DNA of 64,000 bases from Chitinophagales bacterium 65-1 (GTDB lineage Bacteria > Bacteroidota > Bacteroidia > Chitinophagales > Chitinophagaceae), in contig MWYX01000061.1 in assembly GCA_002050465.1 (NCBI GenBank), forward strand, positions 459 to 64,458, in the 5' to 3' direction. The number at the start of each line of letters is the position of its first letter. Position 1 is the stretch's first letter. The notes beneath the pieces are model-generated. The model was not told the origin of the DNA. It searched no databases and saw only the letters and a list, made by a program, of their open reading frames with translations. This document shows positions 7,161 through 39,914 of the stretch, one piece after another. Position numbers and translations under genes: made by a program.

Positions 7161-7772
7161 ATGAAAAAATTAATTATCATAATTATCGCTCTAAAATGTT
7201 TTACTGCAACTGGGCAAATTCCTGTAAATACTTTTACTCAAAAAGAAAAATTATACCTGCAAACATTACAACAAGCAGCAAAATATCTTAAAAGCACACT
7301 TACAAAATATTTTGCTTTTCATTCAACAGAAACTTATAGTGCTGATGAAGCTTTTTATGATACAGTACTTACAATGTTTTTTAATAAAGAAAAAATGCTG
7401 AAGAATTTTGAAAATAAAACTGAAGTATTTGCAGTAGAAGGTAAAATGGATATTGAGCGGCATTTATTAAATGGCTGCGATTATTACTTGGATTTTGTAC
7501 CCACCGATTCCATTTATGTAACCCCTGTACGTTATCGAATTACAGATACTTTAAGAGATTCAAATGACAGCATGCTATTAAATGCTATGGAAATATATTT
7601 TAATGTTGACGGGAAAAAAATTACTACACTTCTTTGCTGGTTTGATATTGATACAAATAAACTGTTAGGGTTAAGCCCATCAGGCTTAAACGTAGAAGAT
7701 AATAATCGATTAATGAACTTTCTGCGAAGACAAAAAAACTATTTTGAATACCCGGTTAAGCGGCAATTATAA
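7161..7772 (+). CDS. Hypothetical secreted protein
   Basis: 203-aa ORF with signal peptide MKKLIIIIIALKCFTATG-Q; no family recognised. Confidence 0.7.
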   Translation: MKKLIIIIIALKCFTATGQIPVNTFTQKEKLYLQTLQQAAKYLKSTLTKYFAFHSTETYSADEAFYDTVLTMFFNKEKMLKNFENKTEVFAVEGKMDIERHLLNGCDYYLDFVPTDSIYVTPVRYRITDTLRDSNDSMLLNAMEIYFNVDGKKITTLLCWFDIDTNKLLGLSPSGLNVEDNNRLMNFLRRQKNYFEYPVKRQL

Positions 7773-7784
7773 ATTGTACTTGCA

Positions 7785-9506
7785 TTACAACACTATATTC
7801 TGCAGCCTGTCGCTCTTATAGGGATAATCCGTATTAAAATGCAAACCCCTGCTTTCATGCCTTAGCTGTGCTCCTTTGGTAATTAAATATCCAACCGTAA
7901 TTAAATTTCTTACTTCGCAAAGCTGTGGGGATATTTCGGTAGCCTGGTACAACGCTTCTGTTTCTTCATGCAATAAATCAAGTCGTTTCATTGCACGTGC
8001 CAAACGAACATTTGTACGCACAATACCTACATAATCACTCATAAGCAATTGCAGTTCTTTTAAGCTTTGCGTAATTAAAATCATTTCTTTGGGGGCTGTA
8101 GTTCCGGCCGCATTCCAATCTGGAATTGCGGCCTCCCTCAAACCCTCTACAGCCCCCTCTAAATCTTCCCGGATAGGGGAGATTTCGCCGTTGCTTAGTG
8201 CCCAAGTTTCACTACCCGAAAAATTTTCATTATTGAAAACTGAGCTTTTGTGCGGATGGGAAGTCCCTCCGTTGGAGGGATTTAGGGAGGCTATATAACA
8301 CCTGTGCGCAAATACCATAGCTTCCAGCAATGAATTGCTTGCTAACCGGTTTGCACCGTGTAAACCTGTACTGGCACATTCGCCGCAGGCATATAAATTA
8401 TTGATGGATGTTCTTCCCCATTCATCGGTTTTTATTCCGCCGCAACTGTAATGCGCTGCCGGAGCAACCGGTATCATTTGTTTGGCAACATCAATAGCTA
8501 TTGATTTGCATTTTTCATAAATATTTGGGAAATGATGAATAAATTTTTCAATATCCATATGCCTGCAATCAAGATATACATGCTCAGTACCTGCAACTTT
8601 CATTTCATTATCAATAGCCCTTGCAACAATATCTCTCGGCGCCAGATCTTCCCTGGCATCATACCTTTCCATAAAAGCTTCGCCCTTATTATTGCGGAGA
8701 ATAGCTCCATCTCCTCTTACTGCTTCTGTTATTAAAAATGATTGCCCCGCAACTCCCGGCTCGTATAAAGCAGTTGGGTGAAACTGTATAAATTCCATAT
8801 TCTCAATCCTGCCTTTTGCCCTGTACATCATAGCAACTCCATCTCCGGTTGCAATTGCAGGGTTTGTTGTTGTACGGTATGCCTGTCCGTTACCACCTGC
8901 TGCCAATAACGTTATCCCGGAGATAATTTTTTCTATTTTATTTGTTTGCATGTTTATTACATACACTCCATAACATGTAATATCAGGTGTTGCTTTGGTT
9001 ACCAAAAAACCAAGATGGTGTTGTGTAATTATATCAACGACAAAACAATGATTAATAAGATTAATATTGGGTTTGTTTTTAATGGCAGCCAGTAAAGTTC
9101 TTTCCATTTCTTTACCCGTTACATCCTTATGATGCAGTATCCTTGATTCGCTATGGCCACCCTCTTTTCCAAGTGTATATTCACCTTCATGGTCTTTATC
9201 AAACCTGGCCCCCCATTCAATGATCTCGTTTATTCTTTCAACACCTTCTTTTACCACTATCTCCACAATTTTCCTGTTACATAATCCATCGCCGGCAATT
9301 AAAGTATCTTCAATATGCTTTTCAAAACTGTCATGATCCATATCCATTACTCCGGCAACGCCTCCCTGGGCATACTTTGTATTCGTCTCATCACTTTGAG
9401 CTTTAGTAAGAATGGTAACCGCTTTATCAGGACAATCCTGTGCAACCTTTAATGCATAAGTAAGTCCTGCTATTCCTGATCCTATTACTAAAAAATCTGT
9501 CTGCAT
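7785..9506 (-). CDS. nadB: L-aspartate oxidase with in-frame repeat-derived insertion
   Basis: IGSGIAGL, AQGG, EGGHS, QFHPT, TGLHGANRLASNSLLE, ESRGLH. Confidence 0.97.
   Translation of the reverse strand: MQTDFLVIGSGIAGLTYALKVAQDCPDKAVTILTKAQSDETNTKYAQGGVAGVMDMDHDSFEKHIEDTLIAGDGLCNRKIVEIVVKEGVERINEIIEWGARFDKDHEGEYTLGKEGGHSESRILHHKDVTGKEMERTLLAAIKNKPNINLINHCFVVDIITQHHLGFLVTKATPDITCYGVYVINMQTNKIEKIISGITLLAAGGNGQAYRTTTNPAIATGDGVAMMYRAKGRIENMEFIQFHPTALYEPGVAGQSFLITEAVRGDGAILRNNKGEAFMERYDAREDLAPRDIVARAIDNEMKVAGTEHVYLDCRHMDIEKFIHHFPNIYEKCKSIAIDVAKQMIPVAPAAHYSCGGIKTDEWGRTSINNLYACGECASTGLHGANRLASNSLLEAMVFAHRCYIASLNPSNGGTSHPHKSSVFNNENFSGSETWALSNGEISPIREDLEGAVEGLREAAIPDWNAAGTTAPKEMILITQSLKELQLLMSDYVGIVRTNVRLARAMKRLDLLHEETEALYQATEISPQLCEVRNLITVGYLITKGAQLRHESRGLHFNTDYPYKSDRLQNIVL
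8131..8292. mobile_element. REP-doublet/MITE-like palindromic element in frame inside nadB
   Basis: Inverted ends gcctccctcaaaccctct (8131-8148)/ggagggatttagggaggc (8274-8291); internal hairpins aaatcttccc-ggata-ggggagattt and aagtccctcc-gtt-ggagggattt. Confidence 0.75.
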
Positions 9507-9529
9507 ACCCGTAACCTAAAAGGGGAATT
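9507..9529. repeat. Degenerate short REP-like copy abutting the nadB start
   Basis: acccgtaacctaaaaggggaatt resembles caccccaacccctaaaggggct at 20681. Confidence 0.45.
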
Positions 9530-9547
9530 TAAAAATGAAAAATAAAA

Positions 9548-11668
9548 TCAGGCAGGCTCTAACCATGCATCATTTTCTTTGATAAGATCTATTAATTCAG
9601 CAACGGCTACATCTTCAGAAACTGATCTTTTTATAACTTCTTTTCCTTTATATAAAGTTATTTTACCGGGGCCACTGCCCACATATCCAAAATCAGCATC
9701 TGCCATTTCTCCCGGACCATTTACTATGCATCCCATAATGGCAATTTTTACCCCCTTAAGATGATTAGTAACGGCTCTTATTTTTGCAGTAGTTTCCTGC
9801 AGATCAAACAATGTTCTTCCGCAGCTTGGGCAACTAATGTATTCTGTTTTTGAAATTCTTGTACGGGTTGCCTGTAAAATTCCAAAAGCAATTGAGTTAA
9901 GAAATTTATTATCGGTTGGCACTTTTTTCTCAGAAAACCGATGCCCCAAACAAATTCCATCTCCAAAACCATCAAGTAACAATGCCCCGGTTTCTATTGA
10001 ATAATGAATAAGACTTTCGTCCATTATTTCATGCATACTGTCAGTAATTATTACGACAGGATTTTTTATGTCCTCATGTATTAACTGTAAAAACATTTTT
10101 CGAATACTCTGAACAGCATTCCGATTTGTAGAGCTTAAACATATCACAACAGTGCTGTCATTCTTTAATTTTGAAAATATTTTTTCAATATCAACCGCAG
10201 GATAACCATCAGAATAACAATCAATCATTACAAAATTAATAACTGCTGATGTTGTAATGGCATCATCTAAGTATTGTTCTTGATCAATAATGGGGAAATA
10301 TTTTTCTTTGTCTGTACAATTAAGCCATGTATTGTAATAACAGATCACTTTTAATGTTACCGGTAATGCAAAATCAATTAGCTGATCTGCGGTAAATAAA
10401 TAATCTGCAGCCGTATCACTAATATTCCATTTATCGGTAACTATATCATAAGTACAGCCTATAGCTTCTAAATCTTCACGTTTGATCTTTTCGATTTTAT
10501 GCAGGTCTCCAATAACAACCGGAACATGCTTATTGCCAATATTATTCACATCAATCGTTTCTCTTCTTTTATATTCAAAAGGAAGCCTCTCCCTAAATCC
10601 CTCTCCAATAGAGAGAAGCCTCTCCCTAAATCCCTCCCCGACAGGGAGGGACTTTGAAGATTCTCCTGTTTCGATATTTGTTTTGTTTATTGCAGTCTTG
10701 ACATTTAAATTTTTATCTGAAATTTCAAAAACATTTGTCTGGCTTTGTGTGTTGGCTAAGCCTCCCCCGTGGGGGGAGATTTGGAGGGGGCTGTATCGTT
10801 TCACAATATTTCTGCAAACAGGAATTTCTAATTCAGGATCTTCAGTTAATGAAACCCTTATTGTATCACCTATCCCATCTTCCAGTAATGTGCCAATACC
10901 AATAGCTGATTTAATTCTTCCATCTTCGCCGTCACCTGCTTCGGTAACACCCAAATGCAATGGATAACAATGCCCTAATTCATCATACATATTTTGAATC
11001 AGGAGCCTGTATGCCTGTACCATTACCTGGGGATTACTGCTCTTCATACTTAAGACAATATTGTAATATCCTTCACTCTCTGCTATCCGCAAAAATTCCA
11101 TGGCACTTTCAACCATCCCTATGGGTGTATCACCGTAACGGCTCATAATGCGATCACTCAATGAACCATGATTAGTACCAATACGCATAGCCGTACCGTA
11201 TTCTTTACAGATCTTCACTAAAGGAGTAAAGCGATTTCTTATACGCTCAATTTCTTCCAGATATTCCACATCAGAATATTCAAGTATTTCAAACTTTTTT
11301 TTATCTACATAATTACCCGGATTAATACGAACCTTCTCAACAAGCCTGGCTGCAATTTCAGCAGCATTTGGTGTAAAATGAATATCGGCAACTATAGGTG
11401 TATCGAACCCGTGTTTGCGTAATGCGTTTTTTATATTGATAAGGTTTTCTGCCTCTTTTTTAGAAGGCGCTGTAATACGGATAAGTTCAGAACCTGCTTC
11501 AATACAGCGAATACTCTGCTCTACGGTTGCAATAGTATCCATCGTATCGGTGGTAGTCATTGTTTGTATACGAATAGGATTAAAATTGCCTAACAGCAGA
11601 TGACCTGCTTTTACCGGGAGTGTGGCAAGCCGTTTATATTCCGTTAAGGATTCAGCGTATAACTGCAT
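9548..11668 (-). CDS. ispG: (E)-4-hydroxy-3-methylbut-2-enyl-diphosphate synthase, long form, with in-frame repeat insertion
   Basis: ADIHF, RINPGN, RIGTNHGSLS, LHLGVTEAG, SCPSCGR, MGCIVNGPGE. Confidence 0.97.
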   Translation of the reverse strand: MQLYAESLTEYKRLATLPVKAGHLLLGNFNPIRIQTMTTTDTMDTIATVEQSIRCIEAGSELIRITAPSKKEAENLINIKNALRKHGFDTPIVADIHFTPNAAEIAARLVEKVRINPGNYVDKKKFEILEYSDVEYLEEIERIRNRFTPLVKICKEYGTAMRIGTNHGSLSDRIMSRYGDTPIGMVESAMEFLRIAESEGYYNIVLSMKSSNPQVMVQAYRLLIQNMYDELGHCYPLHLGVTEAGDGEDGRIKSAIGIGTLLEDGIGDTIRVSLTEDPELEIPVCRNIVKRYSPLQISPHGGGLANTQSQTNVFEISDKNLNVKTAINKTNIETGESSKSLPVGEGFRERLLSIGEGFRERLPFEYKRRETIDVNNIGNKHVPVVIGDLHKIEKIKREDLEAIGCTYDIVTDKWNISDTAADYLFTADQLIDFALPVTLKVICYYNTWLNCTDKEKYFPIIDQEQYLDDAITTSAVINFVMIDCYSDGYPAVDIEKIFSKLKNDSTVVICLSSTNRNAVQSIRKMFLQLIHEDIKNPVVIITDSMHEIMDESLIHYSIETGALLLDGFGDGICLGHRFSEKKVPTDNKFLNSIAFGILQATRTRISKTEYISCPSCGRTLFDLQETTAKIRAVTNHLKGVKIAIMGCIVNGPGEMADADFGYVGSGPGKITLYKGKEVIKRSVSEDVAVAELIDLIKENDAWLEPA
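10582..10795. mobile_element. REP-doublet/MITE-like palindromic element in frame inside ispG
   Basis: 22-nt direct repeat gaagcctctccctaaatccctc (10582, 10615); hairpin aaatccctccc-cgaca-gggagggactt; inverted partner cctcccccgtggggggagatttggagggggctgta (10761-10795). Confidence 0.75.
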
Positions 11669-11767
11669 TCGATTTAATCACTATTTTAATTTGCAAAAAT
11701 ACAATTAAAGAAAGGAAGGATGATTAAAGAGGAGCTATTCAAAATTGAAGTAGTTTCTGAGTAAAAC

Positions 11768-13414
11768 TTACCAGTCTTTTTCCGGCTGATCAGTTGATGA
11801 GGATTTAACTTTATGTAATTTATCCTGCAGATTTTTTTCATGCTCCAATAAAGATTTTAATTTTTCCTCAGCATCCTGCTTTGATATTTTTGAAGGTTGC
11901 GGTTTGGGATCATCCTTTTTATCCTGATTTTTATTCTTATCTTTTTTATCTTGCTTTTTATCTTTCTGATCCTGCTTTTTTAATTGCTGTAAAGCCCGTT
12001 GCAAATTTTGCCTTGCCTGCTCATCATTAGGGTCCAGCTTCAATGCATTTTTATACGCTTTTATACATTCAACCAATTTATTTTGCGATTGTAATACCAC
12101 ACCACCATTGTAATATGCCTTTTGTTTCAGGTTATTGGTCTGGGCAGTTTTGGTGGTATTATCATACGCCTTTAGCGCATCATCAATCTTCTTGGTTTTA
12201 TACAATGCATTGCCATGGTTGTAGAGAGCAGTTGTATTGCCCGTAGATTTTTTTAATGCCTTTTGATAAGATGCGGCAGCCTCATTGTATTGTTTATTTT
12301 TATAAGCTTCATTTCCTTTTATTATTTCTTTTTTTGCGCTTTGGGAAAACCCTTTCGAGGCCCCAATTAATACGGGGGCTATGGTTATTACAAATATTAT
12401 AGGCAGTCCTTTTTTAATTGAATTCATTTTAACTCTTTCAGGAACCAGACTTTCTATTAATAAAATAATTAAAGCAGCCAGAAGAAAATACCAAAAGTAA
12501 TTTTTATAAACTCCGAATGATGAGCCTGTTAGTGTTGTCTGACCAATTGTTTTTAATTTTCTATGAATGTTATCAGCAACTTCATCAGCGCTTGAAAACA
12601 ATTGATATAAACCATTTCCGGTTTGGGCAATGCTTTTTAATTCTTCTTCGTTTAGTTTTGAAACAACAGTATTACCGTTATTATCTTTTTTATATTCATT
12701 TGTTTCTTTATCCCTGATCGGCGCTCCCTGGACGGAACCAATGCCAACCGTATTTACCATAACACCTTCTTCTGCAAGCCGTTTTGTTACATCAATGGCA
12801 TCTTCATCATGGTCTTCTCCATCACTTATTAAAATTATAGCACGATATTTTTTTTCCTTTGTATTGAAAGCAGCGTAACTCATTTTAAGTGCCTGGTTTA
12901 TAACAGTTCCCTGGGTTGGAACATTATCAGTAGAGGCTGACGACAAATACATTTTAGCTGCAGAATGATCACTAGTAAGAGGCATTTGCAAATAAGCCCG
13001 GCCTGCAAATACTACGATTCCTACTTTATCATCGGCCAGTTTATCAATTAATTTACCTACCAGTTGCTTTGCTCTTTCCAGGCGATTGGGCTTTATATCC
13101 TCAGCCAACATGCTATTGCTTACATCTAAAGCAATCATCACATCTATTCCCTTACGATTTATTTTTTGAGTTCCAATCGGTTTTACCAGATCGGCAACAG
13201 CAAAACCACATAAGGAAAATCCGATCAAAACCAGTACAAACTTTATTGCAAAAAGCTTTGAAGAAAAACCCTGAATTAATTGTTTTACCAATGGTGGGTC
13301 TCCGATTTTTTTCATAGCCCTGTTTTTCCACCTTTTTAATAAAACGTAAAGCAATAGCATAAAAGGGATTGCAGCAAGCACTAACAAAAATTCTATGTGT
13401 TGAAAACGGAACAT
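11768..13414 (-). CDS. BatB-like VWA domain fused to BatC-like TPR domain
   Basis: DVSNSM MIDAS motif, LISDGEDH, TM segment, then YNHGNALY/YYNGG TPRs, K/D/Q-rich linker, C-terminal EKDW. Confidence 0.85.
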   Translation of the reverse strand: MFRFQHIEFLLVLAAIPFMLLLYVLLKRWKNRAMKKIGDPPLVKQLIQGFSSKLFAIKFVLVLIGFSLCGFAVADLVKPIGTQKINRKGIDVMIALDVSNSMLAEDIKPNRLERAKQLVGKLIDKLADDKVGIVVFAGRAYLQMPLTSDHSAAKMYLSSASTDNVPTQGTVINQALKMSYAAFNTKEKKYRAIILISDGEDHDEDAIDVTKRLAEEGVMVNTVGIGSVQGAPIRDKETNEYKKDNNGNTVVSKLNEEELKSIAQTGNGLYQLFSSADEVADNIHRKLKTIGQTTLTGSSFGVYKNYFWYFLLAALIILLIESLVPERVKMNSIKKGLPIIFVITIAPVLIGASKGFSQSAKKEIIKGNEAYKNKQYNEAAASYQKALKKSTGNTTALYNHGNALYKTKKIDDALKAYDNTTKTAQTNNLKQKAYYNGGVVLQSQNKLVECIKAYKNALKLDPNDEQARQNLQRALQQLKKQDQKDKKQDKKDKNKNQDKKDDPKPQPSKISKQDAEEKLKSLLEHEKNLQDKLHKVKSSSTDQPEKDW

Positions 13415-19843: not shown

Positions 19844-20695
19844 GTGAAACAGCAACTTATCTTAACTGCCGTAGGTGCATTATTATTTATCAGCCTTCTC
19901 TTGTTTGGGAACATTAAATCACAAAAAAGCAGTTTTCCCCATACGGAACATACCACAGCAACTTTTAACATTACGGATTCTATTAATAAAGCAAAACAAA
20001 AACTATCTTCTTCACAGCTTTTGTATGTAAGCAATTTAGAAAACAGCATTACAAGAGGAGATGTAAAGCAGCAATCGCACAATAATTATATTCATTTAGC
20101 CAATTTTTGGAAAGATTCTGTCAAGGCTTTTGTGCCTTATGCCTTCTATCTTAGTGAGGCTGCTAAGTTGGATAATTCGGAAAAAAGCCTCACCTTTGCT
20201 GCCCGCCTGATTTTAGACAGCATGCGCCGTGAGGAAAACGATCTTGTAAAAGCATGGGAAGCAGAAACAGCGATAGTTCTTTTTGAAAAAGCCATTCAGT
20301 TAAATCCCAATAATGACGATCTAAAGATAGACTTGGGCAGTTGTTATGTGTATGGAAAAGGAATGACAGGGAATGCTGCTGAAACAATGAAGGGGGTACA
20401 GCAATTGCTTAAAGTTGTTGAAAAAGATTCCAATAACATGAAGGCTCAATTAATACTGGGAATCGGTGGGGTTATCTCGAGGCAGTATGATAAAGCTATC
20501 ACCCGGTTAAATAAGGTAGTGGCAGCTCAACCTCAAAATTTAGAAGCTGTATCATGGCTGGCGGATGTGTATGCAGAGAGTGGAGATAAACAAAATGCTG
20601 TTAAATGGTATGAGTACAGCAAAAGATTAGTAAATAATCCTGCTTATACCCGGGAAGTTGATTTGAGAATAAAAGCATTGCACCCCAACCCCTAA
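19844..20695 (+). CDS. TPR-repeat membrane-anchored protein
   Basis: N-terminal TM segment, TPR helices; promoter TACCTTTG at 19802-19809. Confidence 0.8.
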   Translation: MKQQLILTAVGALLFISLLLFGNIKSQKSSFPHTEHTTATFNITDSINKAKQKLSSSQLLYVSNLENSITRGDVKQQSHNNYIHLANFWKDSVKAFVPYAFYLSEAAKLDNSEKSLTFAARLILDSMRREENDLVKAWEAETAIVLFEKAIQLNPNNDDLKIDLGSCYVYGKGMTGNAAETMKGVQQLLKVVEKDSNNMKAQLILGIGGVISRQYDKAITRLNKVVAAQPQNLEAVSWLADVYAESGDKQNAVKWYEYSKRLVNNPAYTREVDLRIKALHPNP

Positions 20696-20702
20696 AGGGG
20701 CT
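20681..20702. repeat. Short REP-like hairpin overlapping the TPR gene stop
   Basis: caccccaacccctaaaggggct; the TAA stop (20693-20695) lies within the hairpin. Confidence 0.6.
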
Positions 20703-39863: not shown

Positions 39864-39873
39864 ATAAATTATT

Positions 39874-39907
39874 ACCTCACCCCAACCCCTCTCCTTATGT
39901 AGAGGGG
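39874..39907. repeat. REP-like hairpin downstream of rpmH
   Basis: acctcaccccaacccctctccttatgtagagggg; stem cccctct/agagggg. Confidence 0.7.
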
Positions 39908-39914
39908 TAAGGAA

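Follow-up and report, generated by a model that had tools for sequence, protein, structure and literature searches.

Triplex-type palindromic repeats as probable in-frame inserts in the nadB and ispG genes of a Chitinophagaceae bacterium

Two adjacent genes for core enzymes of Chitinophagales bacterium 65-1 (Chitinophagaceae), nadB and ispG, contain GC-rich blocks of inverted hairpin units within their open reading frames (ORFs). The window in which they were analysed, G000:C42:459-64458, comprises 64,000 nucleotides of contig MWYX01000061.1 and belongs to a metagenome-assembled genome (MAG; labelled G000) of 1.96 Mb in 68 contigs, which is 79.5% complete and has a GC content of 35.7%. In our view, both blocks are probably in-frame members of a superfamily of triplex-type repeats that is dispersed through the genome and spreads from unit to unit, with a DUF559 protein as the candidate enzyme. 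Single units have entered inter-domain linkers as inverted pairs, with their flanks pointing outward and a few native codons between them. The units are lineage-specific and subject to fast turnover; they lie mostly just after a stop codon, but about 19 conserved genes harbour them as well, where this selfish-looking DNA would be translated as Gly/Ser/Pro-rich peptides under relaxed constraint and tolerated in linkers and loops. New copies would be made from existing units in the course of break repair or gene conversion, whereby one hairpin type can be overwritten by another. The trans-acting enzyme would be a Vsr-like DUF559 protein and not a RAYT, which is the least certain step. The observations in favour of the explanation include one unit of the nadB block that agrees at 34 of 34 nt with a copy inside htpG (G000:C34:42997-43030), and the B/B pairs or solo unit that the nearest MAGs possess at the same nadB site.

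The initial annotation had described a GC-rich block with inverted hairpin units in both genes, and these are indeed present: positions 8148-8170 (tacagccccctctaaatcttccc) agree with 10773-10795 in reverse complement (tacagccccctccaaatctcccc) over 21 of 23 nt, a match that a repeat search extends to 42 nt at 79%. A second unit shared by the two genes could also be recovered, with 8274-8289 as an exact inverted match to 10622-10637 and 10589-10603 over 15-16 nt. Both frames stay open, as had been stated, over the 573 amino acids of NadB and the 706 of IspG.

The host gene nadB (7785-9506, reverse strand) encodes L-aspartate oxidase, in which Pfam recognizes FAD_binding_2 at residues 4-393 and Succ_DH_flav_C at residues 483-566. 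Residues 3-400 and 459-563 align with residues 9-399 and 417-521 of E. coli NadB (1CHU), and the block takes the place of the 17-residue inter-domain linker of that structure. An AlphaFold2 model based on a 30-sequence alignment reached a mean pLDDT of 51.8, with many regions besides residues 411-457 below 50; it hence says nothing on the insert, and the 1CHU alignment was used instead. The alignment with orthologues that had been called for was made with 15 NadB proteins from congeners, i.e. genomes of the same genus. These have 532 amino acids, none contains the block, and their linker, Y-LNAIEKINQLEFNET-IPDW, comprises 15 amino acids, compared to 56 in the present protein (+41 aa).

Five parts can be distinguished in the nadB block. 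The first in gene direction is an A unit (8259-8292, reverse strand), AGCCTCCCTAAATCCCTCC-AAC-GGAGGGACTTCC, which encodes ASLNPSNGGTS, is the unit shared with htpG, and has a flank, CCTCCCT, that mirrors the arm TCCCTCC at 7/7 positions. Next to it lies a tail of the B-long type that has been kept beside the A hairpin, CATCCGCACAAAAGC (8244-8258, reverse strand), to which both the sequence behind the B unit of two close relatives, L110 and L111 (CATCTGCACAAAAGC), and the family's tail consensus CTTGCTAACACACAAAGCC are homologous. The stretch at 8223-8243 (reverse strand), tcagttttcaataatgaaaat, encodes SVFNNEN and matches the orthologues as a remnant of the native linker: its L110 counterpart ATTTTCAATAATGAT agrees at 12/15 nt with the repeat-free orthologue L114 (CTTTTCAACAATGCA; LFNNA), and an FN(E/N) motif is conserved in the linker of 15/15 congener NadB proteins. 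It is followed by a B-long unit on the forward strand (8148-8222), TACAGCCCCCTCTAAATCTTCCC-GGAT-AGGGGAGATTT with a decayed tail, which gives ...SNGEISPIREDLEGA when the opposite strand is read and whose stem contains one G-T mismatch, the orthologous unit of L110 being perfect. The last part is an extra partial unit of flank and arm only, GCCTCCCTCAAACCCTC (8127-8147, forward strand), which encodes VEGLREAA and provides one side of a terminal inverted match of 17 nt (8131-8147 versus 8275-8291). It occurs in neither L110 nor L111, and its junction CCTCCCCAAACTCTACAGCCCCC recurs in a uvrA copy (C33:21226).

The labels L110 to L114 denote the NadB/IspG loci of relatives, and three MAGs that are closer than the congeners have repeats at the same nadB site. 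In L110, the native LDAVKKIK is followed by a perfect B unit with its tail, by ATTTTCAATAATGATAAT, by an inverted perfect B-long unit and then by FPDW, so that the arithmetic fits one insertion of 54 nt and one of 72 nt, native codons having been kept between them, and a net gain of 41 amino acids. The same pair is found in L111 with the right unit decayed, L112 has a solo unit of another type, and NadB relatives at 81% identity or less have no unit at the site. Judged from this alignment, the AT-rich spacer of the nadB block is made up of B tails and native linker, and the block thus consists of two inverted single units. The composite doublet around an AT-rich spacer that had been proposed at first therefore stands with respect to its inverted units, but not as a single composite element, as the nadB spacer is largely native linker. 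Compared to L110 and L111, which carry a B-type hairpin where the A unit sits, the left hairpin here is of A type, yet the same B tail follows it. Against L110, 24 nt of native sequence have been lost, flank, arm and counter-arm change together while the next 35 nt are identical at 31/35 positions, and the partial unit at 8127-8147 has been added on the other side. Such a coordinated change of flank and arm beside a conserved tail is as expected if another unit replaced the resident one. Outside residues 401-460 the protein shares 95% identity with that of L110, and within them 47%; the insert thus appears to evolve under relaxed constraint, the frames being kept open while the peptide drifts.

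The ispG gene (9548-11668, reverse strand) encodes a long-form HMBPP synthase, with residues 18-292 as the first stretch of Pfam GcpE, and the protein is about 45-50 amino acids longer than those of the congeners, directly after the GcpE TIM barrel. A B-long unit with its tail, TACAGCCCCCTCCAAATCTCCCCCC-ACG-GGGGAGGCTTAGCCAACACACAAAGCCAGAC, is located at 10738-10795 (reverse strand) and encodes SPLQISPHGGGLANTQSQ. This copy has CAA where the family has TAA, and as CTC-TAA-ATC would stop translation whereas CTC-CAA-ATC does not, the ORF stays open. The AT-rich stretch between the units (10660-10737, reverse strand) occurs nowhere else in the genome and is weakly similar to the linkers of congeners; it is probably native variable linker. 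Two tandem A-type units with a period of 33 nt follow on the forward strand (10582-10659, with a tandem repeat at 10582-10647), which are read on the opposite strand as SLPVGEGFRERLLSIGEGFRERL and in which CTCTCCCT mirrors TCCCTCCC at 7/8 positions. The ispG pair is older than the nadB pair, since in L110, L112 and L113 alike the linker carries a unit at each of its ends. The congener G018 has a related unit (GGEGFRER) nearby. At the left site the unit is of type B here and of a CCTCCCC type in L112, which keeps tail and position though its hairpin differs. At the right site an A-type unit (GEGFRERL) is shared with L112, and a unit of another type occurs in L110 (GEGFGVRF) and L113. The hairpin type thus differs between relatives at fixed positions in both genes, with tail and position kept, and together the relatives provide a short series of empty site, solo unit, B/B pair and A/B pair. 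Such swaps at orthologous sites, in a NadB that is 95% identical outside the insert, suggest that units are copied onto one another.

The motif also has many further copies in the genome, so that neither of the two outcomes named initially as refutations, equally long segments in orthologues and a motif without other copies, was observed. A scan of all 1.96 Mb for C/T-only arms of 6 nt with a perfect complement gave 204 strand hits at 102 loci, and a shuffled copy of the genome gave none, which places the pattern far beyond chance. These 102 loci have perfect stems of at least 6 bp, among them TCCCTCC/GGAGGGA in the A unit of nadB as well as TCCCTCCC/GGGAGGGA and CTCCCCC/GGGGGAG in the A and B units of ispG. 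The units are 30-60 nt long and share one layout, namely a C/T flank, a short spacer (mostly AAA), a C/T arm, a loop, a G/A arm and an ACTT tail, and the flank is a mirror image of the arm, with a mirror identity of at least 70% at 69/102 loci. Examples of flank and arm are CCCCCTCT / TCTCCCCC, CCTCCCT / TCCCTCC, CCTCCCC / CCCCTCC and CCCCCTCC / CCTCCCCC. Over 55 arm types the mirror identity is 0.742, compared to 0.609 +/- 0.013 for permuted flanks, and 0/2000 permutations reach the observed value; moreover, the T positions covary across more than 10 subfamilies. Where the mirror is broken, 32/52 departures are T-to-A on the pyrimidine strand, which places a T opposite an A-T pair on the purine strand. 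Read on the purine strand, the unit is a hairpin followed by TTT and a purine arm that is antiparallel to the purine arm of the duplex, permitting G.G-C, A.A-T and T.A-T triads. The units are therefore predicted to form an intrastrand triplex of the class II purine motif. As DNA single strands, the whole blocks fold with modest z-scores (-2.4 and -2.2), and an Rfam search of 7500-12000 with E up to 1 returned a chance-level match to whalefall-1, with 17.5 bits against a gathering score of 37.

The single REP-like family that the initial annotation had assumed is better described as a structural superfamily, in which A and B are two subfamilies, and which is of triplex type and not of the plain hairpin type of the repetitive extragenic palindromes (REPs). 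With a regular expression, about 45 units of B-like sequence (AGCCCCCTCTAAATCTCCCCC-loop-GGGGGAGACTT) were detected, together with a few A-like ones. Many B units carry the conserved tail GGGGAGACTTGCTAACACACAAAGCCGT, which the ispG copy has and which is decayed in the nadB copy, and more generally the motif is followed by a tail with the consensus ACTTNNGAAG or ACTTGCTAACACACAAAGCC. The exact B pattern CCCTCTAAATCTCCC-N3-8-GGGAGA occurs 19 times here and not once in each of 18 congeners (2-7 Mb), so that the subfamilies are lineage-specific; the congeners carry other subfamilies of the same architecture. Four of the six frames of a unit are open, and a mobile system of such units could thus colonize the linkers of essential enzymes and continually rewrite their peptide.

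The distribution of the units was determined with a crude set of ORF calls, in which 1739 ORFs take up 90.7% of the genome, for the 69 units with a mirror flank of at least 70%. Of these, 33 lie in ORFs, 7 over ORF ends and 29 between genes, corresponding to 0.199 per kb between and 0.0186 per kb inside ORFs. The count of coding against intergenic hits that had been suggested hence reveals a roughly 10-fold depletion in coding sequence, yet 19 ORFs together contain 22 units whose distance from either end of the ORF is 150 nt or more. The hosts, as assigned by Pfam, include NadB, IspG, PurH, an amino-acid kinase, a MiaB-like enzyme, a Mur ligase, TruA, GH43, RarA, UvrA, HtpG, an MmeI-type enzyme, a fused IcmF-like mutase, IleRS, LeuRS, AroA and a GltD-like protein. 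The encoded peptides are of the types KVSPxGGDLEGA, APSKSPxKGETL, ASLNPSNGGTS, GSPSTGGGWGEA and LSTSGEGxGEV; they are rich in Gly, Ser and Pro and resemble linkers. The view that the repeat is tolerated in linkers and writes new peptide into core enzymes thus holds for nadB, ispG and about 19 ORFs across the genome. An orthologue alignment shows the HtpG insert (+13 aa) to be unique to this genome. In PurH, the unit KVSPWGGDLNG (G000:C12:10459-10491) is located in a variable loop whose length is almost unchanged compared to 11 congeners, and the native loop appears to have been overwritten and not extended. The first 70 codons of the called uvrA ORF (G000:C33:21039-21224) contain three units, one of them with the nadB junction CCTCCCCAAACTCTACAGCCCCC, and the contig ends there. 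Two paralogous polysaccharide-deacetylase genes (G000:C25:1704-1743 and G000:C39:5800-5870) have units at the same N-terminal position, and through the C25 unit the deacetylase shares a single open frame with a GH9 cellulase upstream of it, which could be a true fusion or an artefact of ORF calling.

In 21/36 of the units outside or at the ends of ORFs, the flank lies within -19 to +11 nt of a stop codon. Units that abut a stop often read TAA-AGCC, and their tail is 15-300 nt from the next gene. This polarity may mean that units enter gene ends and supply or replace the stop codon, or the polarity may itself have been selected. When two units are adjacent (at most 250 nt apart), their flanks point outward in 10/11 pairs genome-wide, and the nadB pair is an eleventh.

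The mobilizing gene had been stated to lie outside the window, with HUH-type and DUF559-type enzymes as candidates, and both types do occur elsewhere in the genome. DUF559 (PF04480) has a single genomic match, in frame in an IcmF-like ORF of 1308 amino acids (G000:C38:6488-10414), in which a complete DUF559 domain (aa 209-315) is present as well as three triplex units. The domain sits between the N-terminal helix and the P-loop of MeaB, with a unit directly 3' of it. It resembles PDB 3hrl (E 6.5e-19) and weakly I-Bth0305I (3r3p; E 0.037), and the E-x-D...H residues are present. The insertion is shared with the congeners G016 and G002 and is missing from seven others, one of which, G010, has a solo unit where the IcmF of the other three has the unit 3' of DUF559. 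In congeners DUF559 lies in frame in LeuRS, MetH and further long ORFs, in cassettes bounded by inverted triplex units with their flanks outward. A nuclease ORF next to a unit, as had been predicted, thus exists. A reading of the IcmF insertion as a unit-DUF559-unit composite was rejected, as native MeaB separates the upstream unit, which is shared with congeners without DUF559.

Regarding the HUH type, there are two PF01797 genes (G000:C23:3400-4040 and G000:C28:16276-16617), which reach 77 and 58 bits with the NCBIfam IS200/IS605 model (cut-off 55) and 27 and 20 bits with the RAYT model (cut-off 80). No triplex unit was found within 2 kb of either gene, and on either side of the C23 copy there is another palindrome, GTTCCGTAGGAAC, which occurs nowhere else in the assembly. 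For this genome, 79.5% complete, RAYT was therefore rejected for now as the mobilizer, the genes being IS200-like and one of them having its own palindrome. Of the candidates named initially, it is consequently the DUF559 type, with its nuclease ORF beside a unit, that is favoured, and RAYT is disfavoured.

A relation between DUF559 and the units is also indicated by their co-occurrence. With a covariance model (22 units, at most 150 scored candidates per genome), for which the counts are rough, 0-1 matches were obtained in three congeners without DUF559 and a median of 7 in the others; the one-sided Mann-Whitney test gives p = 0.014 and ignores kinship, completeness and training bias. DUF559 is hence the leading, still unproven, candidate for the mobilizer. 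It would recognize the folded triplex or hairpin and cut there or nearby, and repair would then copy a unit from elsewhere into the break, which would explain the inverted pairs, the loss of native codons and the hairpin swaps. That the repeats and DUF559 form one mobile system is nevertheless a tentative proposal, which we doubt more than we trust.

Several observations weigh against the explanation given at the outset. Target-site duplications and clean empty sites were sought and none were found; in nadB, htpG and purH, native codons were replaced and not simply split. The outward bias of intergenic pairs may partly result from the polarity of units at gene 3' ends. About 100 units have no nuclease next to them, and the one DUF559 gene, a single copy at the same IcmF site as in two congeners, has not moved recently in this genome. 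The co-occurrence was determined for 19 related and partly incomplete genomes with a model trained on this genome. Finally, it is from the open frames that the inserts are taken to be translated as extra peptide.

As an alternative, the doublets could be internally deleted DUF559 cassettes, comparable to MITEs (miniature transposable elements with inverted repeats), in which case the spacers would be remains of the cassette interior. The cassettes of the congeners have the appropriate geometry, with an outward unit flank, an interior and an inverted unit; the 10/11 adjacent pairs share it, and the solo unit of G010 occupies the spot of the unit 3' of DUF559. However, the core of the L110 spacer matches the repeat-free L114 at 12/15 nt and keeps FN(N/E), the spacers have no similarity to DUF559 cassettes or to one another, the nadB and ispG spacers (about 70-100 nt) contain no nuclease ORF, and the upstream unit in IcmF is parted from DUF559 by native MeaB. 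We therefore think that such an origin is improbable.

Somewhat less probable still is the idea that a RAYT moves the units in trans as palindromes of the REP type and that the blocks are REPIN doublets. The palindromes are dispersed, mostly extragenic and often arranged as inverted pairs, the genome has two PF01797 genes, and CTACAG, which is complementary to the GTAG tag, forms the end of a few units. This GTAG/CGTC end tag is not conserved, as CTACAG precedes the flank in about four units (nadB, uvrA and IcmF, with TACAG in ispG) and most units begin with AAAGCC, AAGGCC or CAGCC. Furthermore, the Y1 genes are IS200-like and miss the RAYT cut-off, one of them is flanked by the other palindrome GTTCCGTAGGAAC, the pairs are heterotypic (A with B), and the doublet spacers are not conserved, have no other copy in the genome and in nadB include native codons.

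It has also to be considered that the units are regulatory or structural modules that benefit the host, such as stabilizers of 3' ends, terminators, pause sites or flexible linkers, and that selection keeps them. The fixed polarity of the 21/36 units that abut a stop codon would suit such a role, as would the GC-rich hairpins in a genome of 36% GC and the linker-like Gly/Ser/Pro-rich peptides. But the unit subfamilies are genome-specific, the inserts are missing from most orthologues, the nadB insert outpaces its protein in change while its hairpin decays, and the comparable PIT elements had neither promoter nor terminator activity in published tests (PMC4666352), so that we regard a maintained function as quite improbable. 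An artefact of mis-assembly or of chimeric joins at repeats, for which one could invoke the 68 contigs and 79.5% completeness of the MAG, can practically be dismissed, because the frames are open, conserved sequence lies on both sides and, in nadB as in ispG, independent MAGs from other studies carry inserts of a related kind at these sites.

Intrastrand triplex repeats were already known in the 1990s. They are treated as extragenic, and we know of no mechanism that has been found for their spread. In the BoxC, PIT and TMECO repeats, a hairpin is accompanied by a third, mirroring purine arm in a class II purine motif, and no transposase was found near them (Holder 2015, PMC4666352). The units described here resemble these repeats (Hoyne & Maher 2000; PMC4666352) in the order of pyrimidine arm, loop, purine arm, 3-nt loop and mirroring purine arm, in exceptions that are limited to T opposite A-T, and in being GC-rich, dispersed and strain-specific in number. 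They differ in their host, a Chitinophagaceae, in the 22 copies deep in 19 ORFs and in the conserved tail ACTTNNGAAG/ACTTGCTAACACACAAAGCC. Neither do the A and B units (GGAGGGA-TTT-AGGGAGG and GGGGGAGA-TTT-AGAGGGGG, respectively) fit the TMECO consensus CCCTCNCCC-N3-6-GGGNGAGGG-N3-GGGNGAGGG, to which only the GGAGAGGG-TTG-GGGTGAGG units come close; they hence belong to the same structural class but to another sequence family. Holder 2015 (PMC4666352) does not mention Bacteroidetes, in-frame copies or DUF559, and no report of such behaviour was found in the literature on DUF559, on intrastrand triplex/BoxC/PIT repeats and on in-frame palindromic elements in Bacteroidetes.

In their lifestyle, the repeats are closer to the Rickettsia palindromic elements (RPEs), which Ogata and colleagues are said to have described in 2000 and which reportedly are single palindromes of 100-150 bp in an alphaproteobacterial endosymbiont. 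To our knowledge, their mobilizer has not been identified. Common to both is a palindromic repeat in frame in conserved genes, with the ORF kept and a site at the surface or in a linker, as the orthologue alignments show here for NadB, IspG, HtpG and IcmF. The units of this free-living member of the Bacteroidota differ from RPEs by a length of 30-60 nt, by the mirroring third arm and by their arrangement, which is mostly that of single units or of inverted pairs with native codons in between. With the REP, BIME and REPIN elements (Nunvar 2010; Bertels & Rainey 2011; Di Nocera 2013, PMC3733652) they share short dispersed palindromes after genes, species-specific sequences and clusters of alternating orientation, and the heterotypic pairs recall the Y and Z REPs of BIMEs. 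They lack a general GTAG/CGTC tag and a RAYT flanked by units, and have in addition the mirroring third arm and unconserved spacers. The DUF559 insertions of the congeners, which lie inside conserved genes, are reminiscent of Vsr-fold homing endonucleases (3r3p). Unlike these, they involve no intron or intein but are read through in frame, with both units present in the LeuRS and MetH cassettes and the 3' unit only in the IcmF of this genome. A nuclease ORF is absent from the blocks of nadB and ispG.

What the comparison of relatives adds is the series at two linkers, the paired insertion of single units around native codons and the hairpin swaps. Triplex repeats here behave like Rickettsia palindromic elements, inside the ORFs of essential enzymes, and DUF559 would, if the proposal is true, be the missing enzyme partner of BoxC/PIT-type repeats. 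As one linker is reused and its hairpins are swapped in the nadB and ispG series, the copying mechanism becomes testable. The units may be a natural means by which core enzymes acquire new linker peptide. In Bacteroidota genomes, gene calling, the delimitation of domains and the alignment of orthologues can be led astray by such inserts.

Two further units were noticed in the window. At 20681-20702, a mini-unit, CCCCAA-CCCC-TAAA-GGGG-CTT, is located at a gene 3' end with the stop codon in its loop, which fits the rule that the flanks of units abut stop codons. An intergenic unit of another subfamily, TACCTCACCCCA-ACCCCTCT-ccttatgt-AGAGGGGT, lies at 39873-39914, directly after a separate GC hairpin, GTCCCGCACTTGCCGGGAC.

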